Shown: positions 35,018 to 57,661 of the stretch, one piece after another
How positions within the stretch are numbered: position 1 is the first letter of the stretch
How the letters are laid out: each line of letters begins with the position of its first letter
Source of the DNA: an uncultured Candidatus Saccharibacteria bacterium
Lineage (GTDB): Bacteria > Patescibacteriota > Minisyncoccia > Phycocordibacterales > UBA2100
Direction of reading: 5' to 3'
NCBI GenBank assembly: GCA_964399865.1
Contig: CAYNRJ010000002.1
Coordinates: 161,108 to 225,107, forward strand
Length of the DNA stretch: 64,000 nt
Notes under the pieces: model-generated
Told to the model about the DNA's origin: nothing
The model's input: only the letters and a program-made list of their open reading frames with translations
The model's database searches: none
Program-made: the position numbers and the translations under genes

Positions 35018-35131
35018 GAGATGACGCGATGGCCCTTAGGAGTCTAGGACGCATCAGTTGGTAACTGGGTGCCCAAATACCCCCCATGGGGTAGGTTTTT
35101 TCTTTATGAATTCCAGCTATACTATTCAGTA

Positions 35132-35545: not shown

Positions 35546-35609
35546 ATAGTGTTTCTTTCTGTTAGGCAGTGCTTATCGGGCGCTGGCTTTATTAATTTAA
35601 TTTTATTCT

Positions 35610-36347: not shown

Positions 36348-36352
36348 CGAGT

Positions 36353-38113: not shown

Positions 38114-38165
38114 TTATTCTCGCAGTTATTAAATAAACACATCAAAGCTCAGTAATATAGTTCTT

Positions 38166-40281: not shown

Positions 40282-40434
40282 ATTGCCATAGTGTCTGTTT
40301 GGGGTGAATGGTACGTACTATCTCAACAAAAAGCTCAATTCTTGTTGGGAATAAAAAAGGTATAAAAACCCTTTATCTTAAGCCATTGTATGGAGTTGAA
40401 AATGGCGGGTTAGCTTTGGTAAAATTAAGAATCC

Positions 40435-41610
40435 ATGAATTCAATAATTCCGTTCGTGATCGGGGGTATCCTAATGGCCACCATCCCCCTCGTAAGTGGA
40501 AAAATATTAACAAACGAATCAAAGCAAGAGGTACAAGCACAGGAAAATGCAAGTACTGAACAGAAAGAGGTCGCCGAGTACGAAATCAAGCCCGGCGACA
40601 CTTTTGCAAATATATTAGGGTCTTTCAAAGTGCCTTATGATCAGGCATTAGCAATCATGAATTCCTCAAAAGAGGTGTTCGACTTTACCAAGATTCAAGC
40701 CGGCAGGGTTATTAAGCTGGTATTTATAAATGAGGCGTTCGCGGCTGTTGAGTATCCGCTCACGAGCGAAACTATAGTTATCGTTGTTAAGGATCAGGAT
40801 ACCTTCAAAGCAACAACAAAGCCCATTCCATACGAGTTACAGAACGTAGCCGCCAACGGAACTATTGCCGATTCGCTCTTTGTTGCCGCTCAAAATGCGG
40901 GCATTGAGGATAAGATCACTATGGAGCTTGCCGATATCTTTTCAAGCGATATCGACTTTGCGACTGACATCCGCGATGGTGATTCATTTTCGGTTGTCTA
41001 CCAAAAACGTTCGTTAGACGGCAAGGATGCTGGAGCTGGAAATATACTAGCGGCTCGATTCACAAACGATGGCACGACATACACCGCATTCCGTTATAAC
41101 GATGAATTTTATGATGCTGAAGGAAGATCACTCGCACGTCAGTTTCTTAAATCTCCTCTTAACTACGCTCACATAAGCTCCGGATACAGCTATCAGCGGA
41201 CGAATCCGGTAACCAAACAAGTAACTCCTCACCGAGCGATCGATTATGCCGCCGACGCAGGTACACCGGTCATTGCCACTGCTGATGGAAAAGTAACAAC
41301 GGCAGGATCAAAGGGTGGATTAGGTATTACCGTGGAGTTGAAGCATGGCAATTATCTCACGCAATACGCGCACCTTTCAAAGATCGCTAAAGGCATTAAA
41401 AACGGTGCTGATGTGGTTCAAGGTGATGTTATCGGCTATGTAGGATCGACGGGTATATCAACGGGCCCGCATCTGCAATATGCGATGTTCGAAAATAGCA
41501 ATCCCATAAACCCTCAAACTGCTGATTTCCCGCGAGGAGATTCACTGGCAGATTCAGAAAAGGAGAATTTCACTGCGACCAAAAATAAACTTCAAGGTCT
41601 ATTTAAGTAG
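40435..41610 (+). CDS. M23-family metallopeptidase with an N-terminal TM anchor
   Basis: HRAIDYAADAGTPVIATADGKV...GNYLTQYAHLS matches the LytM/M23 HxxxD ... HxH motifs. Confidence 0.85.
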   Translation: MNSIIPFVIGGILMATIPLVSGKILTNESKQEVQAQENASTEQKEVAEYEIKPGDTFANILGSFKVPYDQALAIMNSSKEVFDFTKIQAGRVIKLVFINEAFAAVEYPLTSETIVIVVKDQDTFKATTKPIPYELQNVAANGTIADSLFVAAQNAGIEDKITMELADIFSSDIDFATDIRDGDSFSVVYQKRSLDGKDAGAGNILAARFTNDGTTYTAFRYNDEFYDAEGRSLARQFLKSPLNYAHISSGYSYQRTNPVTKQVTPHRAIDYAADAGTPVIATADGKVTTAGSKGGLGITVELKHGNYLTQYAHLSKIAKGIKNGADVVQGDVIGYVGSTGISTGPHLQYAMFENSNPINPQTADFPRGDSLADSEKENFTATKNKLQGLFK

Positions 41611-41649
41611 GCAGGTTTTCCACATATTGATTTGACTCTATACCCCCTA

Positions 41650-41658
41650 GGGGGTATA
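41650..41658 (+). promoter_or_regulatory. -10-like element GGGTATACT upstream of csoR
   Basis: ccctagggggtatacttg is immediately upstream of the csoR ORF. The preceding cccctaggggg palindrome could be a CsoR operator. Confidence 0.35.
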
Positions 41659-41659
41659 C

Positions 41660-41944
41660 TTGTTGTATATGAAATACATGGACGAAAAAAGTAAGGCGAA
41701 GGTGGTTCGCCGACTCAAGCTTCTTGAAGGCCAAATTCGGGGGCTTCAAAAAATGGTTGATGCTGACACCTATTGCATAGATGTGATTACCCAAACATCA
41801 GCAGTAAAACAGGGGTTGTCGAATGTCGAAGACCTGCTCCTTGAGAATCATCTGGAGCACTGTGTGCATAATCAGATGCATTCCGGTCAGGCGACGAAAG
41901 CAAAGAACGAAATTATCAAAGTGTATAAGCTCAAACGAAAATAA
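41660..41944 (+). CDS. csoR: CsoR/RcnR-family copper-sensing repressor
   Basis: W-x-Y-C ... H ... C signature (DTYCIDVITQ...HLEHCVHNQM). Confidence 0.8.
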   Translation: MLYMKYMDEKSKAKVVRRLKLLEGQIRGLQKMVDADTYCIDVITQTSAVKQGLSNVEDLLLENHLEHCVHNQMHSGQATKAKNEIIKVYKLKRK

Positions 41945-41949
41945 TTTAT

Positions 41950-44262: not shown

Positions 44263-45274
44263 CTTTATGAAAACTTACACCTTACATGTTTCCGGCACTC
44301 ACTGTGCGGCATGCAAAATCTTTATTGAGGACACTTTGAATGAACAAATCGGTATCAATCGTGCCAACGTCGATTTAAAGCACGAAACCGTCTCAATCGA
44401 CACTACTCTCAATGAAAGCCAGCACAAACTTGCGGAGATATTGACTGAAAAAATAGAGCACAACGGCTATGCTCTTTCTGTTGAAAAGCAAGCTAAAGAG
44501 AGAAAAGATAACGGCATCATTTGGCAGGCATTGCCGATTGGCCTTGCGTTTCTCGCTCTCTTTTTCATAGTGCAAAAGTCAGGAATATTAAACTTTGGTC
44601 TGGGTGGCACGGTGACACCGGTAACCAGTTTTATCATCGGCCTCGTTGCCTCGGTTTCGAGCTGTCTTGCGGTGGTTGGAGGATTGGTACTCTCCCTTTC
44701 CGCCACAGTGTCTCAGGACAAAATAAGCGACGTAAAGCCGATGATGCTTTTTCATGGAGGACGGCTTGTAAGTTTTGCGGTACTTGGTGGTGTTCTCGGT
44801 GCTATCGGGAGTGCGATTGGAATAAGCTTTACGATCACCGCAATACTTGGAATCCTTGCATCAGTCGTGATGATTGTACTTGGACTTAACCTCGTAGGTG
44901 TGTTTCAGAAGAATGTGATCGCCTTGCCTTCCGGATTCTTTAGTTTCTTCCGCAAAGTGGAACATAAAACGATAGCTCCATTTCTTGTGGGTGTTGGGAC
45001 TTTCTTCTTGCCTTGTGGGTTTACTCAGGCGATGCAGGTTGCGGCGCTTTCAAGCGGTTCGTTTCTGTCGGGGCTACTCATCATGACGGCTTTTGCTCTT
45101 GGTACACTTCCAATGCTCGCGCTCCTGTCATTCGGTTCAGCATCATTCGCGCAATCAAAACACGCTCCGCTCTTTTTCAAATCAGCGGGGGTTGTCGTGA
45201 TTGGCCTTGGAGCATTTGCGCTTCTCGCAGGGCTTGCGGGACTGGGTGTAATTGATCCTTTATTTAACATATAA
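44249..45274 (+). CDS. HMA-domain protein fused to a CcdA/DsbD-like multi-TM domain
   Basis: N-terminal VSGTHCAACKIF heavy-metal-associated domain. TM Cys residues (SSCLAV, LPCGFTQ). Overlaps the copA stop, so it is operonic. Confidence 0.6.
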   Translation: MPNSNFMKTYTLHVSGTHCAACKIFIEDTLNEQIGINRANVDLKHETVSIDTTLNESQHKLAEILTEKIEHNGYALSVEKQAKERKDNGIIWQALPIGLAFLALFFIVQKSGILNFGLGGTVTPVTSFIIGLVASVSSCLAVVGGLVLSLSATVSQDKISDVKPMMLFHGGRLVSFAVLGGVLGAIGSAIGISFTITAILGILASVVMIVLGLNLVGVFQKNVIALPSGFFSFFRKVEHKTIAPFLVGVGTFFLPCGFTQAMQVAALSSGSFLSGLLIMTAFALGTLPMLALLSFGSASFAQSKHAPLFFKSAGVVVIGLGAFALLAGLAGLGVIDPLFNI

Positions 45275-45291
45275 TTTTATTAGTCAATTTT

Positions 45292-45681
45292 ATGCAAAAA
45301 AACACAATCATATCCATTATCATCAGCATTGCACTCGTCGGGGGGACTCTTTACTTTGTTTCCGACAGGTCGACTCCCTCGGGTACACAATCTCAGAATG
45401 TCGAGATTAGAGATGGCGTGCAGTATGTGACCGTAACCGCAAAGGGCGGTTATTCTCCTCGTACTACTCAACTCAAAGGAGGACTGCCGACTAAATTAGT
45501 AGTGAAGACAGATGGCACCTACGATTGTACTGCGTCGCTCATTGTTCGTTCAGTTGGATTCCAGAAAATATTGCAGCCGACAGGAGAGGAAATCATTGAC
45601 TTGGGCACTCCAAAATCTGGAGAGAAAGTTCAAGGGATATGCGGTATGGGAATGTATAACTTTGCGGTAAACTTTAATTAA
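45292..45681 (+). CDS. secreted beta-rich protein with a Cys/Met motif (CGMGM); possible Cu(I)-binding protein
   Basis: Signal anchor. No His. Conserved-looking DCTASLIV and QGICGMGMYNF. Lies in the cop operon. Confidence 0.4.
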   Translation: MQKNTIISIIISIALVGGTLYFVSDRSTPSGTQSQNVEIRDGVQYVTVTAKGGYSPRTTQLKGGLPTKLVVKTDGTYDCTASLIVRSVGFQKILQPTGEEIIDLGTPKSGEKVQGICGMGMYNFAVNFN

Positions 45682-46101
45682 ATGATCTCAAGAAAACTAA
45701 AAATTATTTTCTTGATTGCCATTCCAGCCTTTATCATTCACGGTCTGGAAGAAATTCTTACAGGATTTTACAATACCGATTCACAGGTAGATTTTTGGCT
45801 TGGCAGTTTAAATTCTTTACCAACACCACAGGCGACTTTTATACTACTCCAAATTGCGATCGCAGTGATTCTAGTTATCGGCTATCTCTTATTACTTGGA
45901 CCTAAATGGCAATTGCGAGTAATGTTCATACCGGGCATTGTCTTTATCTACGAGTTGCATCATTTGTATAAAGCCGTCACTGTCGGTGGGTATTACCCAG
46001 GATTAGTCACCGCACTATTGCTCTACGTTATCGGGTTCCTTTTCTGGAGAGAATTATTGAAAAATGTTGTCGCAAGGACTGATGTAGCAAAAAGGAGCTA
46101 A
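45682..46101 (+). CDS. HXXEE-domain membrane protein
   Basis: IHGLEEILTGFY matches the HXXEE motif (PF13787-like). Four TM helices. Confidence 0.55.
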   Translation: MISRKLKIIFLIAIPAFIIHGLEEILTGFYNTDSQVDFWLGSLNSLPTPQATFILLQIAIAVILVIGYLLLLGPKWQLRVMFIPGIVFIYELHHLYKAVTVGGYYPGLVTALLLYVIGFLFWRELLKNVVARTDVAKRS

Positions 46102-46114
46102 GATAGCTTTAATT

Positions 46115-46528
46115 ATGAACCAGACTAAGATGTGTAAAAAGTGCAACGGCACGGAGTTGTATATGTTTGACGAAAATCATATACAAACATGCGATGCATG
46201 TTGCACTCACTCAGAAGGCTGGTGGAAGTTGGAGAAGCGTTACGGCAGTGACAACGGAAAATATGCCTGCAAAAGAGGGTGCGGGACGATAGCTGATAAA
46301 CCAACTCTGGCACAATCAATGACAAGACGCATGCCGAAGCCTCGGAGCGAAGAAGATCTCATGGAACTCACCAAAGAGGCTCTTGCCGATGTCCTCGGCC
46401 GAGAACCCACAAAGCAGGAAATTTTACGCGCTCACGCTGGCTTCAAACGCATGGCATTCATGATGTATGAACATTTGCAGCATCAAGAGAGGCAAAATAC
46501 CACGCCACAGGACGAACAGAATAGTTGA
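46115..46528 (+). CDS. hypothetical Cys-rich (zinc-ribbon-like) protein
   Basis: CKKCNGT...CDACCTH...CKRGCG cysteine cluster. Confidence 0.4.
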   Translation: MNQTKMCKKCNGTELYMFDENHIQTCDACCTHSEGWWKLEKRYGSDNGKYACKRGCGTIADKPTLAQSMTRRMPKPRSEEDLMELTKEALADVLGREPTKQEILRAHAGFKRMAFMMYEHLQHQERQNTTPQDEQNS

Positions 46529-46567
46529 GTGTTTTTTACTAAGACACTGCCTCGTTAAAAAGAGTCT

Positions 46568-46780
46568 TTAAAAATCCATCAAGTCGTTCACTCTCAGACC
46601 GAGCGCTCGTGCGATCTTCTGCATATTTGTGAGAGTAATATTTTTCTCAGCCCGCTCAATCATTCCGATGTACGTTCTGTGGACGCCTGCAAGCTGGCCT
46701 AGTCGTTCTTGGGAAATACCCTTTTTGTCGCGCTCCTCGCGCACTCGCTTGCCAAATTTTTGGAGAATTTGCCTGTTCAT
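46568..46780 (-). CDS. XRE-family helix-turn-helix transcriptional regulator
   Basis: ISQERLGQLAGVHRTYIGMIERAEKNITL matches the Cro/CI-type HTH. Confidence 0.85.
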   Translation of the reverse strand: MNRQILQKFGKRVREERDKKGISQERLGQLAGVHRTYIGMIERAEKNITLTNMQKIARALGLRVNDLMDF

Positions 46781-46836
46781 ACCTACACAAACAAGTGTAG
46801 GTAGTCGCTAACTTTGGTTCTACATACTATAGTTAG

Positions 46837-46921
46837 CGCACTGAATACGCACTAAGTCCAGACTGTTGGCAACTCCTCCCAGGCCCCTTCGCAAGGTCCA
46901 TAATGTATGCTAACTATAGTA
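46837..46921. promoter_or_regulatory. pair of palindromic operator-like sites in a divergent promoter region
   Basis: catactatagttagc (46837-51) and its exact reverse complement gctaactatagtatg (46907-21) each contain the palindrome AACTATAGTT. An additional perfect hairpin cctacac-aaacaa-gtgtagg lies at 46786-46805. Confidence 0.5.
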
Positions 46922-46952
46922 TGCATTACCCGATAACACATTTATTAGCTTT

Positions 46953-47498
46953 ATGAGCCAAAAACGTTGGATAGTAGCATTGGCAATTGCAGTCCTTCTG
47001 GCAGCCTCTGGCGGCGCATACTACTGGTACACCGGCACTCCGCAGTACGCCCTTGGGCAAGTCAAGAAAGCGTACGAGACGCACGATACGGACCTTGCCT
47101 TCAAGTACATAGACTTCGATTCGGTATTTGACAGCTTCTGGTCTGACATCCAAAAGCAGTTAACCGAAGAGGCTACGAAAACCGAGAACGAATGGGAGGC
47201 ATTCGGGACGATGATCGGGCAAGGCATCGTTCAGAACATGAAACCAATGCTCAAGGATCGGCTTAAAACAGAATTGACCGATGCGGTCCGAAATACTGAG
47301 CAGGTCGAAGATAACAATCTGTCAAAGTTGGCAGAGACGTATTCACTCAGGCAGGAAGGCAAAATTGCCATTGTCGAAGGCGATAGCCCCCTGAAGCTGC
47401 ACCTTGAAAAGCGAAGTGAGCATCATTGGCGCGTTGTTGCGATAAAGGGCTGGACTGCGGACATGGGTTCGGAAGCGGCAACAACAACCGAACAGTAA
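46953..47498 (+). CDS. hypothetical membrane-anchored protein
   Basis: Signal anchor and an acidic soluble domain. Confidence 0.45.
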   Translation: MSQKRWIVALAIAVLLAASGGAYYWYTGTPQYALGQVKKAYETHDTDLAFKYIDFDSVFDSFWSDIQKQLTEEATKTENEWEAFGTMIGQGIVQNMKPMLKDRLKTELTDAVRNTEQVEDNNLSKLAETYSLRQEGKIAIVEGDSPLKLHLEKRSEHHWRVVAIKGWTADMGSEAATTTEQ

Positions 47499-47499
47499 T

Positions 47500-48285
47500 A
47501 TGGCCCTCTTTACCTTCGTCAGTTCGTTTCTCGAAAAACGCAAAGGCCTCAAAGAGTATCAAGAATTACTCAATCGTTTCTTGAGCGATGGCGTTCTCTC
47601 AGACGATGAAAAACGACAGCTCAAAGATATGCAGACACAATTTGAGCTGTCCGACGATGACGTGCGAAAACTGCAGCAAATCGGTGCTTCAAATGCATTC
47701 AAACAAATCGCATCCGATGAGCGCATTACCGAAGACGAGAAAAAGTCGCTTGAGGCGATCGTTACTCACTTCGGGCTCGACTTTAAAGACATCTCGTTCG
47801 ATCAAAAAGCCTTTAACAAGTACTATACCCTCGCTCTCATCGAACAAGGCATTCTGCCCACCATCAAGGAAGGTAATCACGATCTCAATATCCTATTCAA
47901 AGACGGAGAGATTTTGCACTACGGTCAGTCCGCGACGCTTCGCAAACTCAAACGGGTCACCACGCGCGTCAATTACGGTGGTTTTACCGCCTCCATCAAA
48001 ATCACCAAGGGCGTACGATATCGCGCAGGAACTATCGGTGTTGGAGCACAAACAACGGAGACCCTCGCAGAAGAGGACACCGGCGGCTTCTACCTCACCA
48101 ATCAACGTGTCGGATACATCGGTAGCCGCAAGCATTTCTCACTGCCGTACAGTAAGATAGGTTCGTTCGAGCTGCGTTCCGAAGGTCTCTATATCTTCAA
48201 GGACGGCAAAGAAGTCCCGTACATTCTCACCATGGACGATTACGAAGTGCCGCTTGCCATCGTCTCCCATATCCTCAACGACTAG
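47500..48285 (+). CDS. hypothetical protein with a bacterial PH-like (bPH_2/YdbT-like) C-terminal domain
   Basis: GFYLTNQRVGYIG...FSLPYSKIGSFEL resembles the bPH_2 motif. Confidence 0.45.
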   Translation: MALFTFVSSFLEKRKGLKEYQELLNRFLSDGVLSDDEKRQLKDMQTQFELSDDDVRKLQQIGASNAFKQIASDERITEDEKKSLEAIVTHFGLDFKDISFDQKAFNKYYTLALIEQGILPTIKEGNHDLNILFKDGEILHYGQSATLRKLKRVTTRVNYGGFTASIKITKGVRYRAGTIGVGAQTTETLAEEDTGGFYLTNQRVGYIGSRKHFSLPYSKIGSFELRSEGLYIFKDGKEVPYILTMDDYEVPLAIVSHILND

Positions 48286-48478
48286 TCCGACGTCTTTTGC
48301 TTTTCTTCCTAAATGGCAGTGACGGTTGGTTATGGTGTTTGGCAGACGCTTTTTCTATTTTCCGCAGCAGCTGTATGCACACGCCCAGGAGTCTCTGAAC
48401 GTATTTAATGTTCTCAATGTCCTCTGGGCGCATCACCCAAGGGATGACACAGAGGTCCGAATATGCCGAGTTGGCAAC

Positions 48479-49972
48479 TTAAAAGCGAGTATCCATCCGC
48501 AACGGATGCCAACTCTCGCCATCATCCCATCTGTTTGGACTGAGATCGATGACCAAAAATTGTGGTGCGCCTCGGTCGAATTGAATTGCGTGGTGAGCGA
48601 CGAGCGTGAACGCATCAACGAGGTCGTCGTGTCGTTCAACACCAAAGCCGACAATTTGGCGTATTAGTGCCTCTGCACCATGCCTTGGAAACTTGATCTT
48701 CCCGCTCTGGATCATCGCTGAGATAGAGATGAGGCGCGAGCGTTTGTCAGCGCTCACTTTGATGCCCTCCACGTTTAGAGCGTCATGTGTCAATTGGTCG
48801 ACTACCGCTTTTTGATACCCAACTTCTTCAACTAGAATATGTGAGGAGTATATTTTCTTGTTTGCGTCGCTGATATCTTTAATCTGTTTTATCGTCTCCG
48901 GAAAATTCATGCGCTTGTTGATGATGTTGGGAAGGATGTAGACGCAGAAATTTTCATCATGGCTAATGAGCGCACTCACCATCGCGGTATAGTCAGCGGT
49001 TTCCTTTTGAGAGATTGCCAGATCAACACCGGTGAATATGCCGTGATAGGTATCTCGCCGCTGGGGGAGCGCATCGTAGTAGTGGATCCATGTTTTCTGT
49101 ATAACCTGATCTTCGTCGGGGACGATTCGTAGGAGATACTCTCGTTGCCAGGCATACTCGTTGCCACTTTTCATTTTCTCCTCGGCGATAGCTTCCTGCG
49201 TAGGGTACTTACCTGGCCAGGCAACAGCACCTTCGGTCGTTAACAGTGGGAACATTTTGAAGATTCCATTACGCTGCCCCTCATCGATATCTCGCCGTAG
49301 CCGCATGACCAAAGAATCTTCGTGTAGAAGATTGCCCACCACTACAAACCGGGTACCGCGATCACCGAGTGGCATCACTTCGCCGCAAAGCCAGTTATAT
49401 ATCTTTTGCCGATTCTCGTACGTTTTGACCGACGCCATATCCTCAAGGTCGTCACAGATAATGAGGTCGGGACGGTGCTGGTTGTGGCGAAGACCACGAA
49501 TACTTTGCTCAGTCGAGACCGCCATGATTTTTGCTTTCAGTTGCGGAAACACTAAAGCCGAAGCACCCCACTCACCGTTTTCTTCTTGAAAGGGTCCGAG
49601 GTCGTTGCGTAGCAAACTATTGCTCTCTAATTCGCGCTTCAAGTTAATGAGGTGTTGCTTGGCTTGAGTCTGCGTTTGGCAGATGATAAGCACGAATTTC
49701 TTTTGTTGCACGCCGAGCATGGCCCAGAGGGAGTATGAAAAGGTAACAAGGGTTGATTTACCGGAACCGCGAAAAGCGACAATGACCACGAGCTTGTTCG
49801 CACTATCTTCGGTAATGCGAAATATGTCCTTTTGGAATTCAGCTATGGGATACGTGACGTAGTGGGAGAAATACACGTAAAAGAACATGAGATGACTCTC
49901 GCGGGTCACCGTGCGTCTCACTAAACGATCCCGTGCGATCGCCTCGAATGTTACGGTATCATTCGTTTCCAT
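48479..49972 (-). CDS. terL: phage terminase large subunit
   Basis: Walker A AFRGSGKST, LIICDDLEDM Walker B-like ATPase core and a C-terminal RNase H-like nuclease. Confidence 0.85.
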   Translation of the reverse strand: METNDTVTFEAIARDRLVRRTVTRESHLMFFYVYFSHYVTYPIAEFQKDIFRITEDSANKLVVIVAFRGSGKSTLVTFSYSLWAMLGVQQKKFVLIICQTQTQAKQHLINLKRELESNSLLRNDLGPFQEENGEWGASALVFPQLKAKIMAVSTEQSIRGLRHNQHRPDLIICDDLEDMASVKTYENRQKIYNWLCGEVMPLGDRGTRFVVVGNLLHEDSLVMRLRRDIDEGQRNGIFKMFPLLTTEGAVAWPGKYPTQEAIAEEKMKSGNEYAWQREYLLRIVPDEDQVIQKTWIHYYDALPQRRDTYHGIFTGVDLAISQKETADYTAMVSALISHDENFCVYILPNIINKRMNFPETIKQIKDISDANKKIYSSHILVEEVGYQKAVVDQLTHDALNVEGIKVSADKRSRLISISAMIQSGKIKFPRHGAEALIRQIVGFGVERHDDLVDAFTLVAHHAIQFDRGAPQFLVIDLSPNRWDDGESWHPLRMDTRF

Positions 49973-50357
49973 GGCTTTTGAGATTTACATCTGCAAGCTC
50001 CAGTGCCTTTCGCACTAGTTCTTTCTGTTCCGGCGAGAGTTCCTGAATCGTATTAACGGTACCCTCGATTTCGACCCGCGTTTTATATGACGGGTGGTGA
50101 TGTTTGAGCCAGTACATGATCGCGGCAAAGTTCCTGTCCTTGACTGCGCCAATGAGCTGGCTTTCTGCTAAGTCGTTTACAAGGAGTCGACCATCAAAAA
50201 TGGCTTCATCTATTTTCTTGGCGAAATCTCCATCTTCATTTTTCCATCGATAGAAGGTCCAGCGGCTGATACCGAGTTTTTCACACGCAATCTGCACGAT
50301 TGGCGTTTTCTTTAGTTGCTCGAGCAATGCCTCTTTTGTCTGTTCTGTCTTTTTCAT
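49959..50357 (-). CDS. terminase small subunit-like HTH protein
   Basis: IACEKLGISRWTFYRWK helix-turn-helix. Immediately upstream of and overlapping terL. Start taken at MKKTEQTKEAL. Confidence 0.55.
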   Translation of the reverse strand: MKKTEQTKEALLEQLKKTPIVQIACEKLGISRWTFYRWKNEDGDFAKKIDEAIFDGRLLVNDLAESQLIGAVKDRNFAAIMYWLKHHHPSYKTRVEIEGTVNTIQELSPEQKELVRKALELADVNLKSHGNE

Positions 50358-51118
50358 ATGCGCTTCGCTTTCTTGCCCGTCATTTTTTCCCAACGCTTGA
50401 TGATGGTCTGGCAGTACTCGGAGTCGAGTTCGATACCGAAACAACGGCGTTTGGTCTGCTCGCACGCCAAGAGGGTCGTGCCGCTCCCAAGGAAGCCGTC
50501 AAAGATTACGTCGCCCATACTAGTGCTGTTGAAAACAAGTCGTCGTACGAGTCCGATTGGTTTGGTGGTCGGATGCAATTTGCTCTTGTTGGGGCGTGGG
50601 TAAAAGAGTACTGATTTATCTTTGGAACGGCGGAAATGATGCGTGCCATACCAGCCATACACGATGAGTTCGTGCTGTGGGGCGTAGTCCAATCTGCCGA
50701 TGACCGACTGCTGCTTTACCCACACAAGTAGCTGTGCAATCTTGAATCCGCTGTCAGCCATGCCGTCGCGCAACGACCACACCATCTTGTCGGCGTTGAA
50801 GATGTATGCGCTGTTTTTCTTGGCGAGGTATGGCACCAACGCCTTCAACCACTCCTTGCTGAATTGGCGGTACTCGTCATCCGATTGCAACTGGTCGCCA
50901 ACGATGTCCTTGTCTTTGGTGAGCGTGCGAAAGTTGCGTTTGGATTCGGCAACCGCAACCCCATATGGAGGATCGGTGCAGAGCACATTGACGCGCTCAT
51001 CGCCAAGCAACTTCTTGAGAAGCTTCGCATCGCGACAATCTCCTTGCGCGAGTCTATGCTCTCCGAGCTGCCAGATACTAGCGGAGCTTTTTTGATTTTT
51101 GTCTGGTGAGTTTTTCAT
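50354..51118 (-). CDS. DNA methyltransferase (N6-adenine/N4-cytosine, beta class)
   Basis: Motif IV DPPYG precedes motif I FDGFLGSGTT. Confidence 0.9.
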   Translation of the reverse strand: MKNSPDKNQKSSASIWQLGEHRLAQGDCRDAKLLKKLLGDERVNVLCTDPPYGVAVAESKRNFRTLTKDKDIVGDQLQSDDEYRQFSKEWLKALVPYLAKKNSAYIFNADKMVWSLRDGMADSGFKIAQLLVWVKQQSVIGRLDYAPQHELIVYGWYGTHHFRRSKDKSVLFYPRPNKSKLHPTTKPIGLVRRLVFNSTSMGDVIFDGFLGSGTTLLACEQTKRRCFGIELDSEYCQTIIKRWEKMTGKKAKRI

Positions 51119-52355
51119 AGCGGCGTATTACCAAGTCAACGAATATCGGCTCGCGTTCGACCAAGTACGCAGAGCGCTTGAGCTGTTCACATGCCACGAG
51201 CAAGCTGCCCGAGCCACCAAAACAGTCGAGAATGATGTCGCCGGGCTTTGTGCAGCGTCGCAGAGCTTTCTCATGGAGCATCGGCGGCTTCTCGGTGGGG
51301 TGCTGGTAGTCGGTGCCGTTGAGGCGTTTGACCATCCAAATGTCGATCATGTCGTAGATGTCCTCCAGCGTGCGGTTGCCAGTACCGATCTCTTTGTTGA
51401 ACACCTCAGACAAATTCAATACTTTCTCACTCAAGTACGGCCTACCGACCGTGCCGTACACGCACGGCTCGTATTGCTTGTTGAAAGCGACTTGTGGTGT
51501 AGGTGTTGAGTTGTTCTTTACCCACAAGCACACACGCTTGTTGGCGATGCCGAGTTCGGCATACAGCGTCTGCAAGAGCCATATGTACTTCTGATCACAG
51601 TACGTGAATACGTGCGCGTCCTTGTCGAGAACCGACAGCGCATTCTCAAGCGCCATCTTGAGGAACTTTTTGTATTCATTGTCCGGCTTCGCGTCATCGA
51701 CCGTGCCGCCGTAGTTACGCTTGCCGCCGATGCCTTTGTTGTAGTCGAGCGAAATATTGTATGGAGGATCTTGGAGAATGGACTGTGCTTTCTTACCGCC
51801 CATCAATTTATTGAGCACGTCAGGATCGGTGCTATCGCCGCAGATAATGCGGTGCGTGCCGAGTTGGTACAGTTCGCCCAACTTGGATTTCGGCTTTTTG
51901 ATTTTCTCCAGCTCCTTCTCGATATCAAACTCATCGTCCTCGACCTCGAGATCATCGAAGATGTGTGCCATATCGGTGTCGTCGAAGCCGCTTACAAGGA
52001 GCGTATCGATGTCGAAGTTGTCCGCGAGTGCTTGCCAGTCCCAATCGCCATGGATGCGGTTGCTTCCAAGGAGATACTGGTCGTATTCCTTTTGTGTCAG
52101 CTTGCGGTTTGGCACGCGCACGGGAATGCTCTCGTGCTCGCGTCCCAAGAGCTTGAGCACCATGAGACGTTGGTGACCGGCGATCACGGTGTTGTCGGCA
52201 TCGACGACCGGCAATTCGACGAGGTCAAACTTTTTGAGTGAGCGCTTCAAGTCCTCGATCTGCTTCGGCGACATCGTGCGCGGATTTTTTATGTTGGGCA
52301 CGAGGTCGCTAATCTTGCATTCGGCCGTGTGCCATTGAAGTCTTTGCTGTGCCAT
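51078..52355 (-). CDS. ParB-like nuclease N-terminal domain fused to a DNA methyltransferase
   Basis: N-terminal ParB/Srx fold (PVVDADNTVIAGHQRLMVLK). Then DPPYN and DCFGGSGS methyltransferase motifs. Confidence 0.88.
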   Translation of the reverse strand: MAQQRLQWHTAECKISDLVPNIKNPRTMSPKQIEDLKRSLKKFDLVELPVVDADNTVIAGHQRLMVLKLLGREHESIPVRVPNRKLTQKEYDQYLLGSNRIHGDWDWQALADNFDIDTLLVSGFDDTDMAHIFDDLEVEDDEFDIEKELEKIKKPKSKLGELYQLGTHRIICGDSTDPDVLNKLMGGKKAQSILQDPPYNISLDYNKGIGGKRNYGGTVDDAKPDNEYKKFLKMALENALSVLDKDAHVFTYCDQKYIWLLQTLYAELGIANKRVCLWVKNNSTPTPQVAFNKQYEPCVYGTVGRPYLSEKVLNLSEVFNKEIGTGNRTLEDIYDMIDIWMVKRLNGTDYQHPTEKPPMLHEKALRRCTKPGDIILDCFGGSGSLLVACEQLKRSAYLVEREPIFVDLVIRRYEKLTRQKSKKLR

Positions 52356-52439
52356 ATATCTCTATCTGCAGAGATTTCAGCGGCAACAATAAAATGGCTC
52401 TACGCATAGCGTGAGATGCTGAGAAAATCAGAAAACGCC

Positions 52440-52470
52440 CGCTGAGATTTCAGCGGTTGCAACAATGAGT
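52440..52470 (-). terminator. rho-independent terminator (minus strand)
   Basis: Minus-strand ccgctga-aatc-tcagcgg followed by gcgttttctgatttt. Confidence 0.45.
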
Positions 52471-52477
52471 ACTCCTC

Positions 52478-53299
52478 TCAGTTCTCTTCAGAATCTTCTT
52501 CTTGGATCGCATTATCAAGCAATCTACCTCCTGAGCGATGGAGCTCACCACCACCGCGCAGAATGGATTCTGATCTGAGCTTGCACTTGAGCTGGTAGCC
52601 GCAGTGGGGGTCGTAGAAATTGAAGGGACTGTCGGCAATCCCGAGCGCTGACGAAAGTTTTTGTGCTAGTGCCTGTTTGTTTTTCTGGAGTGCTGCTTTT
52701 GTTATGTTAAGTGAGCGGGACAAATTCTCCGTCGTCGGTACCATCATCTTTTTCTGCTCTGCGATAATGGATAGCTGGAGGAGAAGACCCCATTGCTTAT
52801 CTGGTTTACGGTCGCGCGTATTCTTGCGCGCAAAGCCGAGATCCGAATAATCGCAGTCTCGCATTCGGTTTCCTTTATAGAAGACCGAGAGCGTATAGAG
52901 ATCCTTGAAGCGTAATTCAAGATGTTCCCATCGTGTATCACTCGGCAACTCAACTACAGCGCGTTTCGATTCGATAATTTCAAGATCTCGAGGGATTGGT
53001 GATACTGCCCATTCTGGCCGGGAAGGAATAGTAAGTGGTGTGGCAGCTGCTTTCATGGCGATGTCGAACCGCGACATATCTTCCACGGCAGCCTGCATCA
53101 TTCGGTGAAATCGCGTTAGCGATTCCAATGCAGGAGCCATGGATAGCATCATGCGTTTTTGAGATTCGTGCAAATTAGCTAGTGTTTGTGCATATGGCGC
53201 TATCATACGGGCGGCATACGTGGCATATCGTTCAGCATCGTGCTGAGCGTTTGTGAACAGTGAAAGTGTATTGGATCTGAGCACGGGGAAGGTCGACAT
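52478..53299 (-). CDS. hypothetical protein (273 aa), divergent from the repressor gene
   Basis: ORF only. No family recognised. Confidence 0.45.
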   Translation of the reverse strand: MSTFPVLRSNTLSLFTNAQHDAERYATYAARMIAPYAQTLANLHESQKRMMLSMAPALESLTRFHRMMQAAVEDMSRFDIAMKAAATPLTIPSRPEWAVSPIPRDLEIIESKRAVVELPSDTRWEHLELRFKDLYTLSVFYKGNRMRDCDYSDLGFARKNTRDRKPDKQWGLLLQLSIIAEQKKMMVPTTENLSRSLNITKAALQKNKQALAQKLSSALGIADSPFNFYDPHCGYQLKCKLRSESILRGGGELHRSGGRLLDNAIQEEDSEEN

Positions 53300-53321
53300 G
53301 CTTCCATTCTAACACTAGTTG

Positions 53322-53348
53322 ACAGTTGTGGACAAGGGTGTATCATTT
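53322..53348 (+). promoter_or_regulatory. sigma70-type promoter TTGACA-N16-TATCAT
   Basis: ttgacagttgtggacaagggtgtatcat ends 6 nt before the ATG at 53354. Confidence 0.5.
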
Positions 53349-53353
53349 CTCGT

Positions 53354-53971
53354 ATGAACCGGACCACAAAGAAGGACTTAGAAGGCTACGCTCTTATACG
53401 CAATCAGATCATGCATACCGGTGTTACGCCCTCCCTGCGTGAGATTGGGAGGGCTATTGGATACGTATCACCGCGCTCTGTACAGCTCATGTTGAAGCGA
53501 CTCCAAGTTCGAGGGCTTCTTTTGTATGAGGGGGGCGTTATTAAGCTTTCCTCGAAGAAAACCCCAACGATGTCGGAGCAGACAGTGAATGTTCCGTTGG
53601 TTGGTTCGGTTGCGTGCGGCCTACCGTCGCTTGCAGAGCAAGATGTTGAGGCGCTTATCCCGATTTCAACGCGCATTGCACGGCCCGGGCATACATACTT
53701 TCTGCTTCGTGCTGTCGGAACATCGATGAACAAGTCGGGCATCAATGATGGTGACCTGGCGCTAGTGCGTCAGCAGCCGAGCGCCAGCGACGGAGAGAAA
53801 GTAGTGGCCCTCATCAACGACGAGGCGACGATCAAACATCTCCATCACGAGGAGGGGGTGATTGTGCTCAAGCCGAACTCTACGGATCCGGCGCACAAGC
53901 CGATAGTTCTTTCAGACGAATTTATTATTCAGGGAGTTGTTACCGCAACACTCCCTGCCAATCTCTATTAG
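53354..53971 (+). CDS. LexA/CI-like repressor with an S24 peptidase domain
   Basis: N-terminal winged HTH. C-terminal S24 VGSVACGLP...AVGTSMNKSGINDGDLALV (Ser-Lys dyad). Confidence 0.85.
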   Translation: MNRTTKKDLEGYALIRNQIMHTGVTPSLREIGRAIGYVSPRSVQLMLKRLQVRGLLLYEGGVIKLSSKKTPTMSEQTVNVPLVGSVACGLPSLAEQDVEALIPISTRIARPGHTYFLLRAVGTSMNKSGINDGDLALVRQQPSASDGEKVVALINDEATIKHLHHEEGVIVLKPNSTDPAHKPIVLSDEFIIQGVVTATLPANLY

Positions 53972-53973
53972 GT

Positions 53974-54201
53974 ATGGCAAAAAACATACACACCGTTTAT
54001 AACTCCGACCGCGAACGCTGGGAGAATAAGGCCGAAGGCAAAAGCGACCCGCTCTCAACGCATCGTACAAAAGAGAATGCGCTCAATGCGGGCGAGAAGA
54101 TCGCCGAGACAAAACACGTTGAGCATTTTATTCACGGCAAGGATGGCAAGATCCAAGAGCGTAACAGCTACGGCAACGATCCGTTCCCACCGCGTGGGTA
54201 A
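53974..54201 (+). CDS. DUF2188-family small protein
   Basis: HGKDGKIQERNSYGNDPFPPRG matches the conserved C-terminus of DUF2188. Confidence 0.6.
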   Translation: MAKNIHTVYNSDRERWENKAEGKSDPLSTHRTKENALNAGEKIAETKHVEHFIHGKDGKIQERNSYGNDPFPPRG

Positions 54202-54222
54202 TTATTATTTAAATTCAAAAAT

Positions 54223-54669
54223 ATGGACACAGTCTTTGTTAGTTTTGATTATACGAATGATAAGCACTACAAGTACCTCCTTGAGGCGTGGCACGCCAAT
54301 CCAAAATTCCAGTTTGTTTTTGATGACGGTACGCCAACCGAGATCGACAGCACCAATGTAGGGCGCATCAAAGCTGCACTCACTTCAAAAATAAAGGAGG
54401 CGACTCACACATTGGTTATCGTTGGCAAGCAAGCTAATCAGCGACATTGGAAGAGCGACCTCATTGGTTACAAGAATTGGATTAACTTTGAGGTAAACCG
54501 AAGTATCCAAGAAGGCAAGCGACTTGCTGTTGTGCGTCTTGAACGCTCGTATGATCTGCCCGAAGAACTATCTGGAGGTCAGTATTCATTGGTTGAGGGA
54601 TTCAGCGAGACGAATGTTATGCAGGCGCTGAATACTGCTCCGTACCAACGAGTAACTCGTTATGCCTGA
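54223..54669 (+). CDS. TIR-like domain protein (DUF1863 / MTH538-type, ThsB-like)
   Basis: N-terminus VFVSFDYTNDKHYKYLLEAW and TLVIVGKQANQRHW...NFEVNRS resemble the DUF1863 TIR-like consensus (VFISF.Y..D...). Confidence 0.6.
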   Translation: MDTVFVSFDYTNDKHYKYLLEAWHANPKFQFVFDDGTPTEIDSTNVGRIKAALTSKIKEATHTLVIVGKQANQRHWKSDLIGYKNWINFEVNRSIQEGKRLAVVRLERSYDLPEELSGGQYSLVEGFSETNVMQALNTAPYQRVTRYA

Positions 54670-55258
54670 TTCTGTTTCAATTCTCTACGATCACTACAAA
54701 GACACTTGCGCGATAGTCGGCGAGGCGGTAAAGCGGCGTGATCGTGCCATGTTGCTTGTAATCATTGCAGCGGCATTTTTCGCCTTTCAAACAATATTCC
54801 CGAGCGCAGCTGATCTTGCGGTGACCGATTATCTCGGTTTTAAATTCGGACTGACACTCGGGATTAACCTATCTATCATTGGTAATGTGGTCTGGGTGCT
54901 TATTCTTTTGTTTACTTTGCGATACTTTCAAACCGCCGTGTTTGTCGAGCGACAATACGCATATCTCCATCAACTTGAAGATAAGCTAAACGTTGCGATC
55001 GGTCAGGACCTAATCACTCGCGAGGGAAAATCGTATCTTGCTGACTATCCGCGGTTCTCAGATTGGATGTGGATGATCTACACGATCATATTTCCAGCGC
55101 TTTTATTTTTTGTAACCTGCGTCAAGATAGCTGCAGAATGGCTCAGCACATCTGGCGAGGGGGTTACCTTTGGGTTGCTTGTTAATACCGGAATATTCAT
55201 ACTGCTTGCTGTTTCAATCGGACTATACCTTGGCATGTTGCACTTCAAGAAAAAGTGA
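54662..55258 (+). CDS. 4-TM membrane protein, candidate effector
   Basis: Four predicted TM helices. Start overlaps the stop of the TIR-like gene by 8 nt, implying translational coupling. Confidence 0.55.
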   Translation: MPDSVSILYDHYKDTCAIVGEAVKRRDRAMLLVIIAAAFFAFQTIFPSAADLAVTDYLGFKFGLTLGINLSIIGNVVWVLILLFTLRYFQTAVFVERQYAYLHQLEDKLNVAIGQDLITREGKSYLADYPRFSDWMWMIYTIIFPALLFFVTCVKIAAEWLSTSGEGVTFGLLVNTGIFILLAVSIGLYLGMLHFKKK

Positions 55259-55810
55259 CAGAGCAGAAGTTCAAAATAGTGTCACTTTTGTCACTTTTTG
55301 CACCCTACACAGGCCCGACTGAGACGCCTCAATTTGGTACACTGAAAGTTCTCGAAGAACCCTTACACGGCCTCAACTTGTGGGGTTCCAGACTGAGTCA
55401 GTCAGCAAAATGAGCACCGCGAATTTTGCGGCGGGACTTGGATTGGGAGAGGGTCGGAGAACGGGAGTTCTCCGTGGAGGAAGGAATGGGAAAACCGTGG
55501 CGTTTCCCAGGAGTCCTTGTCCCGCGACCCTGTTTTTTTGCAAGCCTTTACAGTAGATGAAGACGTTGTACTGTTCTGCGTATATGAACAGCAATTTTTT
55601 ATATACTCTGTTGGCTGTCGTTGTAATGGGGTTAGCGTTCGCTTTTTATTGGTACTCCTATAGACCAGAGCAGATCAGGAAAAATTGCTATCAAGCGGTC
55701 CTTCAAACATCTGATTTTGACCTAAACTACCGAAGTTGTTTGCGAGACCACGGCCTAGATAAATAAACAAAAAGGGAGCATGAAATTAGGTCCAATTCAA
55801 TTCGCGATAC

Positions 55811-56851
55811 ATGGTAACTCATGAACAGGCAGCAATTTGGGGGAATTTCTGGCAGATATTCCACCTGTCTAAAATGCTTATCTCCGATTACGAAAATATT
55901 CCCACGAAACAAGAACTGTTAAAAAATCTCCCCCAAATTGAAACGGCATATATAGATTCAATTATTGTTCACGTAGCAAAAATTTTTACACGCTCTGATA
56001 ACGAGCCGTTTAGTTTGGCGAAGTTTAAGACACTTTGTCGTGATGAAATCAGAAAAGAAATTGAAGGAGTAGAGGGTGAGTACAAAGATATCATTGGTAA
56101 GATAATTACAAACAGAAACAGGCTTATTGCGCATCTCGATAAAACGTTCTATGAACTTTATTTTTCGAAAAGCGAAATAGAAAGAATGGAACAAGCAATG
56201 AGCACAGGGATGGGGATGAGTTTAAACGACGCAAAGAGTATATACGCCTCAATGCCCCGAACCGCAGACAAAAGCAAAGAACGGTATTCTTTTGGCGACT
56301 TTAGAGAAGATTTCCCACGTATAAAGGCGATGATAGATAAGCTCGAAGATATTTGGGGTAGATCAATGCCATTTGTGGAATCGGGAGTCCGAGCGACAGA
56401 AAGAAATGCCTCTGCCTTTTTATCGCTTTCATTACGTTTTGCTAAAGAGTATCTCAAACAATTAAAGGCCTTGAGGAAGATACATGGAGAAGCTGAGATT
56501 CAAGAATTAAATGAACTAACTGTTCATCATAGAGCACTCTGGACAGCACTTATAGTTGAAATTAGGAAATTGTTCGGTGCATCTTTCAAAGGGTACAAAA
56601 ATTATTCTTTAAGAGAAATTGATTTCTTTAAAAATGAACCTCATAAAACAAAAATTGATACTGTGTATGGCAATCATATAATTCAAAGAATTTTGAAAAC
56701 AAGTAATAATTTTACTGTTCACCTCAGTCAAGAGCAGGAGGTTCCGTTAGATATAGTGCAAATTTGTAATTCCAATCTTGAGGATTTACTTACTCAACTT
56801 CAAGAGCCAATGGAAGCTTTTAGAAACACTCTCGAGCCTGAGGGAGTTTGA
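55811..56851 (+). CDS. hypothetical Abi/HEPN-like protein (Rx4-6H motif)
   Basis: NRNRLIAHLD contains the R-x5-H HEPN-type motif. AT-rich gene composition. Confidence 0.35.
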   Translation: MVTHEQAAIWGNFWQIFHLSKMLISDYENIPTKQELLKNLPQIETAYIDSIIVHVAKIFTRSDNEPFSLAKFKTLCRDEIRKEIEGVEGEYKDIIGKIITNRNRLIAHLDKTFYELYFSKSEIERMEQAMSTGMGMSLNDAKSIYASMPRTADKSKERYSFGDFREDFPRIKAMIDKLEDIWGRSMPFVESGVRATERNASAFLSLSLRFAKEYLKQLKALRKIHGEAEIQELNELTVHHRALWTALIVEIRKLFGASFKGYKNYSLREIDFFKNEPHKTKIDTVYGNHIIQRILKTSNNFTVHLSQEQEVPLDIVQICNSNLEDLLTQLQEPMEAFRNTLEPEGV

Positions 56852-56857
56852 AAAGTT

Positions 56858-57661
56858 ATGAGCAAAAATCAATTAACCCGAGTTCAACATTTTGTTCCGA
56901 GATTCATTCTAAAAAGATTTATTAGTTCAGGTAAGTTCAAGTTGGTTGATAAGAGATACGAAAAGTCCTCCCAGAGAACTCCCAAAGGGAGTATGTATAA
57001 GGAATATTTTTATGAACACGATGATTTTAACCCAAATGAAGTTGAGGATCTGCTCGCATCAAGAGAGGGTATATATGCTCCGATAATTGAAAAAATAATT
57101 TCAAGACAGGAACTTACTCTCAAAGAGCATCGGACGCTAATAGAATTTCGACATATCACATACTACAGATCAAATGAGTTTATAGGTTTCCATACATACA
57201 AGAAAAATAGAGGAGAGAGAAGCTCTGACCAAAGACTAGATTGGTTACGGATTAATGGAATATTTGGCTCCGATATCACAGATAAAAACATCAAAAGGTC
57301 TCAGCTTAAAGCTATCCAGAGCGTTATTAGTAAAAAAGATTCGGCTTATCAGATAAGTTCGGTTACCCCAATATGTCTTGTCGCTATAGCGAAAGACAGA
57401 AAGTTTGTTATTGGTGACAATGGTTCTATTTCAATGGGAGATGAATTTGAAGGAATGACGGTTATTGTCATATCGCCAACTCATGCCCTCGCTTTTCCAC
57501 GAGCAAGTACAGCACTTGAATTGATGAAAAAGATTGGAGTTACCAGCCAAACATCTACGATTGTGCGTTTAGAGATTGATAACGACCTCGTTGATACACT
57601 TAATGAGCGTATTGTTGATAATGCCTTCGAGTATTATATTGACCCGAACGCCCGTGCGTAG
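56858..57661 (+). CDS. DUF4238-like protein
   Basis: N-terminus VQHFVPRFILKRF resembles the DUF4238 H-h-V-P-x-F-h-L-k-x-F motif. Sits 6 nt downstream of the preceding gene. Confidence 0.5.
   Translation: MSKNQLTRVQHFVPRFILKRFISSGKFKLVDKRYEKSSQRTPKGSMYKEYFYEHDDFNPNEVEDLLASREGIYAPIIEKIISRQELTLKEHRTLIEFRHITYYRSNEFIGFHTYKKNRGERSSDQRLDWLRINGIFGSDITDKNIKRSQLKAIQSVISKKDSAYQISSVTPICLVAIAKDRKFVIGDNGSISMGDEFEGMTVIVISPTHALAFPRASTALELMKKIGVTSQTSTIVRLEIDNDLVDTLNERIVDNAFEYYIDPNARA

Follow-up and report, generated by a model that had tools for sequence, protein, structure and literature searches.

Four consecutive genes on the plus strand, encoding a repressor, a small DUF2188 protein, a TIR-domain protein and a four-transmembrane (4-TM) protein, lie near the right end of an integrative element in a 64,000-nucleotide (nt) stretch of an uncultured Candidatus Saccharibacteria contig. 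This whole stretch is referred to as the window, with positions counted from its first letter; L-numbers denote comparison loci and contigs. The S24 LexA/CI-type repressor (53354..53971; Pfam PF00717, 4e-25; PF01726, 1.5e-9) is followed by a 75-amino-acid (aa) DUF2188 protein (53974..54201; PF09954, 1.4e-17; PADLOC PDC-S16, 1.2e-26; phrog_3220, 1e-22), a 148-aa ThsB-type TIR protein (54223..54669; PF08937, 2.3e-12; PADLOC ThsB1, 1.4e-12) and a 198-aa protein (54662..55258) with four hydrophobic segments, for which Pfam and PADLOC are blank. The S24 and DUF2188 genes are separated by 2 nt and the DUF2188 and TIR genes by 21 nt, followed by an 8-nt overlap between the TIR and 4-TM genes (ATGCCTGA). 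An earlier, sequence-only reading of this DNA had called the same four open reading frames, which are recovered at the same coordinates, all on the plus strand, with these gaps and this overlap. Its domain calls are likewise borne out by Pfam, PADLOC and hydrophobicity, with TIR-like DUF1863 now named ThsB_TIR (PF08937). The four-gene order is found again in relatives as far as ~49% identity of the 4-TM protein (e.g., L016), and is therefore more than chance.

The TIR protein matches PF08937 with 47.6 bits, above the cut-off of 21.2 bits (2.3e-12). Its family is marked by the motifs VFVSFDY.NDK.YK.LL.AW and G..AN..H....IG..NWINFE, the second of which contains the catalytic glutamate, E90 (NWINFE). 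This residue is invariant in 34/34 aligned homologues, favouring an enzymatic function of the TIR, and is aligned with the catalytic Glu of WVRYEI in Bacillus cereus ThsB. Comparison of the window protein with the TIRs of type VII Thoeris revealed 26–31% identity (E values of 1e-17 to 1e-19). The sequence-only reading depended on 54223..54669 falling within TIR-like families, and the PF08937 and ThsB1 profiles place it there. From these features, the protein is predicted to be a stand-alone ThsB-type TIR that acts as infection sensor and signal synthase.

The TIR gene is consistently paired with the 4-TM gene. The survey, made with the window proteins, covered 33 genome loci (retrieved via a conserved peptide from an 18-sequence alignment), five viral contigs and several metagenome contigs. 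Both genes are present at 38 distinct loci, with the TIR gene first and on the same strand in 38/38 and a distance from TIR stop to 4-TM start of -8 to +27 nt in 37 of the 38; all five viral contigs carry the pair. The hosts are Patescibacteria, Alpha- and Gammaproteobacteria, Desulfobulbaceae, Firmicutes, Chloroflexi, Poribacteria, Latescibacterota and one Methanotrichaceae archaeon. TIR and 4-TM pairwise identities are correlated (r = 0.76), a value that partly reflects shared phylogeny. A second ThsB gene, a common trait of Thoeris, is located 3' of the 4-TM gene in L004, L010, L013 and L014. Only one genome locus, L038 (10001..13200 of a Cyclobacteriaceae metagenome-assembled genome), has no short ThsB-type TIR beside the 4-TM gene. 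There, an 865-aa LRR-Roc-COR-A-COR-B-TIR_2 protein begins 12 nt after the 4-TM gene, so that a TIR protein accompanies the 4-TM gene at every genome locus. This bacterial ROCO (LRRK-like) protein may provide the same family of effectors with a TIR sensor.

The first two genes of the window locus are far less constant. An S24 gene is present at ~16 of the 38 loci and DUF2188 at ~9, the latter almost all in Patescibacteria; outside Patescibacteria the other neighbours are mixed and include methylases, integrases, helix-turn-helix (HTH) proteins and RHS. Because the pair is invariant and S24 and DUF2188 are found at only part of the loci, the core is a two-gene TIR+4TM module. The three-gene module of DUF2188, TIR and 4-TM that had been proposed for this locus does not hold up, given the ~9/38 frequency of DUF2188, the invariance of the pair and the presence of DUF2188 ahead of type II Thoeris, the cyclic oligonucleotide-based antiphage signalling system (CBASS) and PDC-M36 as well. 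Co-occurrence of the triplet with S24 in other genomes was found in part: the order recurs in relatives, but most of the 38 loci have no DUF2188.

The 4-TM protein is predicted to adopt an N-in/C-in topology, because its Lys and Arg residues cluster at the N-terminus, the TM2-TM3 loop and the C-terminus. Three cytoplasmic-side motifs characterize the family: YDHYKDT, RYFQ..ERQY.Y.H.LE and TREGKSYL..YP.FSDW. Invariant or near-invariant residues are located in the N-terminal helix (H11, Y12, K13, T15 and R26), in the TM2-TM3 cytoplasmic region (R87-Y88-x-Q90, E96-R97, Y99, Y101, H103 and E106) and in a third group (R120-E121-G122-K123-x-Y125-L126, Y129-P130, F132 and W135). All conserved Arg, Lys, His and Tyr motifs fall on the predicted cytoplasmic side, where they would form a basic, aromatic surface of the type usual in nucleotide-signal receptors. 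The AlphaFold2 model is all-helical, with a mean confidence (pLDDT) of 77.8. The protein has >150 close homologues, and a profile search expanded the family to 848 clusters at 50% identity, all stand-alone proteins of ~200 aa. No relatives were found in Pfam, PADLOC, PHROG or PDB. Among 25 diverse members, Pfam gave no match to SIR2, SLOG, Macro, caspase, DUF2270, DUF6650, SLATT, CMP-hydrolase, HIT or ion-channel families, and there was likewise no match to the SLATT_1-6 or S_4TM models (none to SLATT even at E ≤ 10). The protein is predicted to be a signal-activated effector and falls outside the validated Thoeris effector families (types I–XI).

In related Patescibacterial elements, the position occupied by the TIR+4TM pair holds other cassettes. 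Contigs of close DUF2188 homologues were followed, with cargo assigned by PADLOC. Behind S24-DUF2188, L061 carries type II Thoeris (ThsB and ThsA-Macro; PADLOC 2e-74 and 3e-38), L064 carries a CBASS cyclase with a 2TM/Cap15 effector (PADLOC 1e-105 and 7e-56), and L065 carries PDC-M36A with a 221-aa protein; in L117, type II Thoeris sits in the slot behind a head lacking DUF2188. The cargo of L054 (4243..7789) comprises four proteins of 302, 439, 144 and 280 aa, with no precomputed Pfam annotation and no PADLOC match. Homologues of the 439-aa protein are present in L084, L095, L103, L109, L126, L130 and L133, and this four-gene set is the commonest cargo among the sampled contigs bearing the tandem motif described below. 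Alignment of L061 with L064 reveals 95% identity through S24 and DUF2188, divergent cargo, and 88% identity resuming right after it. The position behind the repressor is therefore a true slot for the exchange of defence cassettes. Known Thoeris and CBASS systems in the same slot provide strong guilt-by-association that TIR+4TM is a signalling synthase with a membrane effector, and the unknown cassettes that alternate with known systems there become defence candidates in turn. Fixed backbone positions that exchange unrelated cassettes are known as defence hotspots in P2/P4 prophages and satellites, phage-inducible chromosomal islands (PICIs) and SXT. The slot described here differs from these in its Patescibacterial host, its backbone of TerL, TerS, methylase and serine recombinase genes among which no capsid genes were found, and its location directly behind the repressor.

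The distal boundary of the slot (55250..55299) is composed of an inverted copy at 55251..55260, overlapping the 4-TM stop codon, and the tandem repeat TGTCACTTTT-GTCACTTTTT at 55280..55299. The two pair into a hairpin with arms at 55250..55260 and 55289..55299. Such a hairpin after the last gene had been noted from the sequence; it exists, but it is thermodynamically weak and no canonical terminator, folding at -15.4 kcal/mol (z = -1.47) with 15/200 shuffles folding equally well. It belongs to a conserved tandem motif, TGTCACTTTTGTCACTTTTT, located 3' of the cargo in at least 10 related elements. The TGTCACTTTT-GTCACTTTTT motif is present in the window, L006, L009, L011, L012, L013, L016, L054, L061 and L065; an inverted copy or a GTTACA-N6-TGTAAC hairpin often comes before it. 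The exact 20-mer recurs in at least 120 metagenome contigs (including L066-L145); among the matches listed, about half of the longer contigs carry backbone genes and the rest show none within the stretch fetched. Judged by this conservation, the hairpin is a feature of the element backbone, and the tandem motif could serve as a terminator, a protein-binding site or a recombination boundary. Beyond it, a right-end block (55312..55436), alignable among relatives, ends at the right boundary of the element. In relatives this block measures ~100 nt (GCGCTCGAGAcGCGTCG ... CCTTACnGGGCTTG ... GGTTCtAgCTCGAGacGGCCaGC) and contains direct repeats ~75 nt apart that co-vary between loci, the window copies being CGACTGAG and AGACTGAG. 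It matched no Rfam family and gave no consensus fold in RNAalifold, and may represent an attachment-site arm.

The S24 protein, composed of an N-terminal LexA_DNA_bind domain (PF01726) and a Peptidase_S24 domain (PF00717), has a predicted self-cleavage site at Cys88-Gly89, with Ser124 as nucleophile and Lys161 as general base (residues counted by hand on the translation). The Ala/Cys-Gly cleavage site, the Ser (GTSM) and the Lys (ATIK) are kept in every aligned homologue. The DNA-binding domains are strongly divergent among sister elements, as expected for immunity repressors specific to each element. These features identify the protein as an element-borne LexA/CI-type repressor, predicted to be self-cleaving. 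An identity as host chromosomal LexA was considered and rejected, as the gene sits in an element that has a different right flank elsewhere and its DNA-binding domain varies between sisters.

The PDC-S16 model PDLC04941 matches the DUF2188 protein over its full length (residues 1-75 of 75; 1.2e-26); a literature search for PDC-S16 found nothing relevant. Its structural model predicts three strands, a helix and two further strands, with a disordered, highly conserved C-terminal tail (SYGNDPFPPRG), and a search with this model gave no informative structural neighbour. In the window, as in L004, L005, L008, L009, L010, L013, L016 and L026, the DUF2188 gene immediately precedes the TIR gene; in L054, L061, L064 and L065 it stands ahead of other cargo. 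It is missing from the head in L015 and L117. In L006 a DUF3892-like protein, a borderline match (E = 2.7e-4), takes its position, as do unrelated small open reading frames in L011 and L012. S24 and DUF2188 form an optional regulatory head, in which DUF2188 is accessory to the repressor and lies outside the TIR+4TM core. Elsewhere in the survey, LexA_DNA_bind-Peptidase_S24 is fused to a DNA methylase in proteins of 450-525 aa (L021, 7894..9417; L022, 1235..2596; L050, 7454..8231), and in L021 and L022 the fusion gene runs divergent from the TIR+4TM pair. Such a self-cleaving repressor-methylase fusion is unusual.

The entire divergent control region is 54 bp long (53300..53353) and contains two overlapping promoters. 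A sigma-70-type promoter for the S24 operon on the plus strand (53319..53346) combines a -35 TTGACA (53319..53324) and a -10 TATCAT (53341..53346) across 16 nt, matching 11/12 consensus positions; it is the highest-scoring promoter site in the region and confirms the TTGACA/TATCAT promoter of the sequence-only reading. The S24 ATG starts 7 nt past the end of the -10 hexamer, so the S24 transcript would be leaderless. On the minus strand, a promoter-like site (53306..53335; TTGTCC-18 nt-TAGAAT with a TG extension; 9/12 positions) faces the leftward operon and ends 6 nt before its ATG at 53299. Both genes flanking the region therefore appear leaderless. The leftward -10 is also present in L008 and L009, where the 17-nt core GTTGACAGTTGTGGACA, covering both -35 hexamers, is kept with its promoter spacing at ~65-80% DNA identity. 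Together the two -35 hexamers make an inverted repeat, though an imperfect one (TTGACA gttgt GGACAA), and since the leftward -35 lies inside the spacer of the rightward promoter, the two divergent promoters could work as a compact switch. Elsewhere, in L011, L012, L015, L016 and L061, a -10 hexamer is likewise positioned 6-8 nt ahead of the S24 start codon.

The gene order, the small gaps and the single strong promoter fit one predicted transcript for all four genes. The codons for the conserved PPRG tail, at the extreme 3' end of DUF2188, form a short GC-rich stem (54186..54198; CCCACCGCGTGGG) with a T-rich tract after it. Read-through into TIR+4TM could be attenuated here, or codon choice could have produced the stem by coincidence.

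The slot is part of a mobile element of ~22 kb (33538..55436), extending from a tRNA-Gln and serine recombinase to the right end past the 4-TM gene. The large serine recombinase (33725..35017, minus strand; Resolvase, Recombinase and Zn_ribbon_recom domains) adjoins tRNA-Gln (33538..33611) and probably marks the left end. Facing the S24 operon, a divergent backbone operon on the minus strand (48479..53299) encodes a 273-aa protein, two N6/N4 DNA methylases, a TerS-like protein and TerL (Pfam; PHROGs TerL 2e-80, TerS 7e-12), an order repeated in L006, L008, L009, L011-L016 and L061. Between recombinase and backbone, ~13 kb (35-48 kb) of copper-resistance cargo encode a DsbA-like protein, a multicopper oxidase, an M23 peptidase, a Cu P-type ATPase and DsbD_2-HMA. 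A contig from another sample, L001, is 99.85% identical over 48662..55436 and then carries different genes, which sets the right boundary of the element near 55436, 178 nt past the 4-TM stop. The same element, copper cargo included, is present in another sample with a different right flank. Cluster mates of the window proteins are annotated as LexA [Patescibacteria group bacterium] and Cu-ATPase [Candidatus Adlerbacteria]. In other Patescibacteria the recombinase is directly beside TerL, and these sister elements measure only ~8 kb, with a compact layout in which serine recombinase, TerL, TerS, methylase and a small gene face a series made up of S24, sometimes a further small gene, TIR, 4-TM and sometimes a second TIR. 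The complete prophage implied by the sequence-only reading is not borne out: TerL, TerS, methylases and serine recombinase are present, but neither capsid nor tail genes were found in the window element, nor capsid genes in the sister elements, which may be phage satellites. Searches of INPHARED phages and PLSDB plasmids (blastn, tblastn) gave zero matches for the region or the 4-TM protein, and no TerL relative was found in IMG/VR.

The pair itself has been catalogued by others. Yirmiya et al. (bioRxiv 10.64898/2025.12.03.692087, December 2025) scanned ~600 million proteins and reported 29 putative Thoeris configurations, validating types V to XI. In their Table S1, 34 TIRs, all from TIR cluster 2727267812, are given "4TM" as putative effector; these TIRs share the motifs VFVSFDY.NDK and NW(I/Q)N(F/Y)E with the window TIR family. 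One entry, ga0307245_116992036, is identical to the L025 TIR, which the window TIR matches at 1e-38, and the neighbour of the L025 TIR is a homologue of the window 4-TM protein (4e-34); the TIR+4TM pair is therefore already catalogued as a candidate. The view that this combination belonged to no described system must accordingly be dropped, since TIR+4TM is the listed "4TM" candidate (Yirmiya et al.) and DUF2188 is PADLOC PDC-S16. The cassette is rated a variant of Thoeris whose effector class others have listed as a candidate. That listing gives TIR sequences and a label, with no effector description or regulatory context, and the text of the preprint, as far as consulted, makes no mention of the S24-DUF2188 head, of the Patescibacterial element or of slot exchange. 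Beyond the preprints of Yirmiya et al. and Lau et al., a literature search on ThsB with 4TM, and on Patescibacteria with Thoeris or CBASS, found nothing relevant.

Among the members of cluster 2727267812 is the type VII system from B. licheniformis (ThsB and SLATT), which has been validated and responds to canonical cyclic ADP-ribose (cADPR) (Yirmiya et al.). Type VII resembles the window cassette in having the closest characterised TIRs, a two-gene operon and a small membrane effector, ThsH; the difference lies in the effector, which has four TM helices and no SLATT match in the window. Type II (Macro-TM ThsA; histidine-ADP-ribose, His-ADPR) and type V (DUF2270, three TM helices; 3'cADPR) likewise couple a TIR synthase to a membrane-disrupting effector, and type II occupies the same slot in the sister elements L061 (behind S24-DUF2188) and L117, but the window 4-TM protein has neither a Macro nor a DUF2270 domain. 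For the regulatory head, Lau et al. (bioRxiv 10.1101/2022.04.27.489752) found DUF2188 and DUF3892 genes directly after the CapH/CapP repressor-protease regulators of defence operons. The two arrangements share a DNA-damage-responsive repressor/protease (predicted as such in the window) ahead of a signalling defence operon and a DUF2188/DUF3892 small protein after the regulator. CapH/CapP is a divergent pair of HTH protein and metallopeptidase, whereas the window encodes one LexA-type S24 polypeptide on the same strand as its cargo. By this analogy, the S24-DUF2188 arrangement is a putative LexA-type counterpart of the CapH/CapP regulators.

Taken with the pairing and the slot, these relationships make it probable that the genes at 54223..55258 are a two-gene Thoeris-type TIR+4TM abortive-infection cassette in the repressor-proximal slot of a Patescibacterial integrative element. 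The ThsB-like TIR would sense phage infection and, through Glu90, turn NAD+ into an ADP-ribose-derived second messenger. Because the nearest characterised TIRs (type VII) use canonical cADPR, that molecule would be the most likely messenger, as the best, though weak, guess. On the 4-TM protein, the messenger would bind where the N-terminal helix and the TM2-TM3 loop make up a conserved cytoplasmic face of positive charge; the protein would then oligomerise and breach or depolarise the membrane, so that phage replication stops. Transcription would probably start at the leaderless promoter of the element's own S24 repressor, with DUF2188 as an optional accessory, and the cassette would be expressed alongside the immunity repressor, as rexAB is with lambda cI. 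Self-cleavage of S24 following DNA damage might allow further de-repression.

Several observations weigh against this interpretation. No nucleotide-binding domain can be recognised in the 4-TM protein, nor was a relation to SLATT, S-4TM, Macro-TM or DUF2270 detected, and the protein's most conserved loop, TREGKSYL, is modelled at low confidence. The proposed signal is assigned from 26-31% identity to type VII TIRs, and none of the 34 TIRs of the "4TM" class in Table S1 was chosen for experiments (Yirmiya et al.). Shared phylogeny accounts for part of the correlation between TIR and 4-TM identities. Most TIR+4TM pairs occur without an S24 gene, indicating that the repressor link is specific to this lineage, and the terminator-like stem at 54186..54198, between S24 and TIR+4TM, counts against the predicted co-transcription with S24.

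The layout of repressor, cytosolic protein and 4-TM protein had been matched to lambda cI-rexA-rexB, and the likeness extends to a leaderless repressor promoter and to divergence from the other element genes. It would permit exclusion without a diffusible signal: the TIR, a sensor in the cytosol, would bind the 4-TM protein and gate it directly, much as RexA is presumed to activate the RexB channel. The 8-nt start/stop overlap, suggestive of translational coupling and fixed stoichiometry, the co-evolution of TIR and 4-TM (r = 0.76) and the missing match to a known ligand-binding domain in the 4-TM protein favour this mechanism. The match to lambda stops at the layout, however. Alignment of RexB with the 4-TM profile gave an hhalign probability of 0.08%, RexA and the TIR protein share no similarity (BLASTP E = 1.6 across 8 residues), and the window repressor has the S24 domain alone in common with lambda CI (4e-6). 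Unlike the Rex system, the window pairs its membrane protein with an enzyme-type TIR, and TIR+4TM is widespread without a repressor. The invariant catalytic Glu argues for an enzyme, the closest characterised TIRs signal via cADPR, and the L038 4-TM protein beside an unrelated ROCO-TIR is easier to explain by a shared small-molecule signal than by a specific protein interface. Direct gating is therefore unlikely. A system in which DUF2188, TIR and 4-TM are all obligatory, with DUF2188 as a possible sensor or second effector, is quite unlikely: although DUF2188 lies directly 5' of the TIR gene in the window and eight L loci, is the PADLOC candidate PDC-S16 and is listed as a putative effector beside other TIRs (Yirmiya et al.), the Table S1 TIRs linked to it belong to a different TIR cluster, under a separate effector label. 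Most TIR+4TM loci have no DUF2188; its position elsewhere holds a DUF3892-like protein, unrelated small proteins or nothing, and behind the same repressor DUF2188 also stands ahead of type II Thoeris, CBASS and PDC-M36.

The roles of the two proteins could also be reversed, with the TIR as an NAD+-depleting effector and the 4-TM protein as a membrane sensor or anchor, for example for phage DNA entry or membrane perturbation. Many bacterial TIRs are NADase effectors, in CBASS, Pycsar, prokaryotic Argonaute (pAgo) and Avs systems, and no known pore or ligand domain was found in the 4-TM protein. Yet the window TIR, of ThsB type, is short and stands alone, lacking any sensor or regulatory domain, tested members of its cluster make signals, and the slot in sister elements holds a synthase with a membrane effector (Cap15 or Macro-TM), which makes the reversal very unlikely. 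It is highly improbable that the pair serves the element instead of defence, as an addiction module or in holin-like lysis or release under the element's repressor. Its place on a TerL/TerS element under that repressor and its small, holin-reminiscent 4-TM protein fit such a role, but the pair occurs in many genomes lacking such an element, amid unrelated neighbours; such TIR clusters show enrichment next to defence genes (Yirmiya et al.), and the same slot carries bona fide Thoeris and CBASS. A signal-synthesizing TIR with a membrane effector remains the preferred reading.

We propose tentatively, as a possibility that extends beyond the cassette, that the window represents one member of an undescribed family of compact Patescibacterial integrative elements. 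Such elements would combine a backbone of serine recombinase, TerL, TerS and ParB/methylase, a LexA-like head (often with DUF2188 or a DUF3892-like protein) and a slot bounded by the TGTCACTTTT tandem repeat and the ~100-nt block, which exchanges TIR+4TM, type II Thoeris, CBASS-Cap15, PDC-M36 and the unknown four-gene set. They might be phage satellites whose head ties cargo expression to the immunity or induction state, and the 4-TM proteins might form a new family of membrane effectors activated by cADPR-type signals.

If validated, TIR+4TM would add a further Thoeris type, with an effector family of 848 clusters that has no Pfam, PADLOC or PDB relative and with a new small membrane protein reading a TIR-made nucleotide signal. 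Priority for the TIR+4TM pairing belongs to Yirmiya et al. (2025), who noticed it first. The system itself is expected; more valuable leads are offered by the element, its slot and the effector family, which is uncharacterised. Patescibacteria are ultra-small episymbionts whose mobile elements and phage defence are little known, and the slot behind S24 offers a natural guilt-by-association catalogue, in which the 302/439/144/280-aa set is a defence candidate. The head would extend the CapH/CapP theme, DNA-damage-responsive control of signalling defence with DUF2188/DUF3892 companions, to LexA-type repressors.

Two further features were observed around these elements. In the sister element L109, the serine recombinase and TerL flank a LOOT RNA (2437..2553; Rfam RF03000, 69.5 bits); no LOOT RNA match was found in the window. 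Directly outside the right end of the window element, genes for a HEPN_AbiU2 protein (346 aa, 4e-8) and a DUF4238 protein (267 aa, 5e-26) are arranged back to back (55811..57661). With a GC content of 37.8% against ~50%, and missing from the flank of the other copy of the element, they are probably a separate small defence island.

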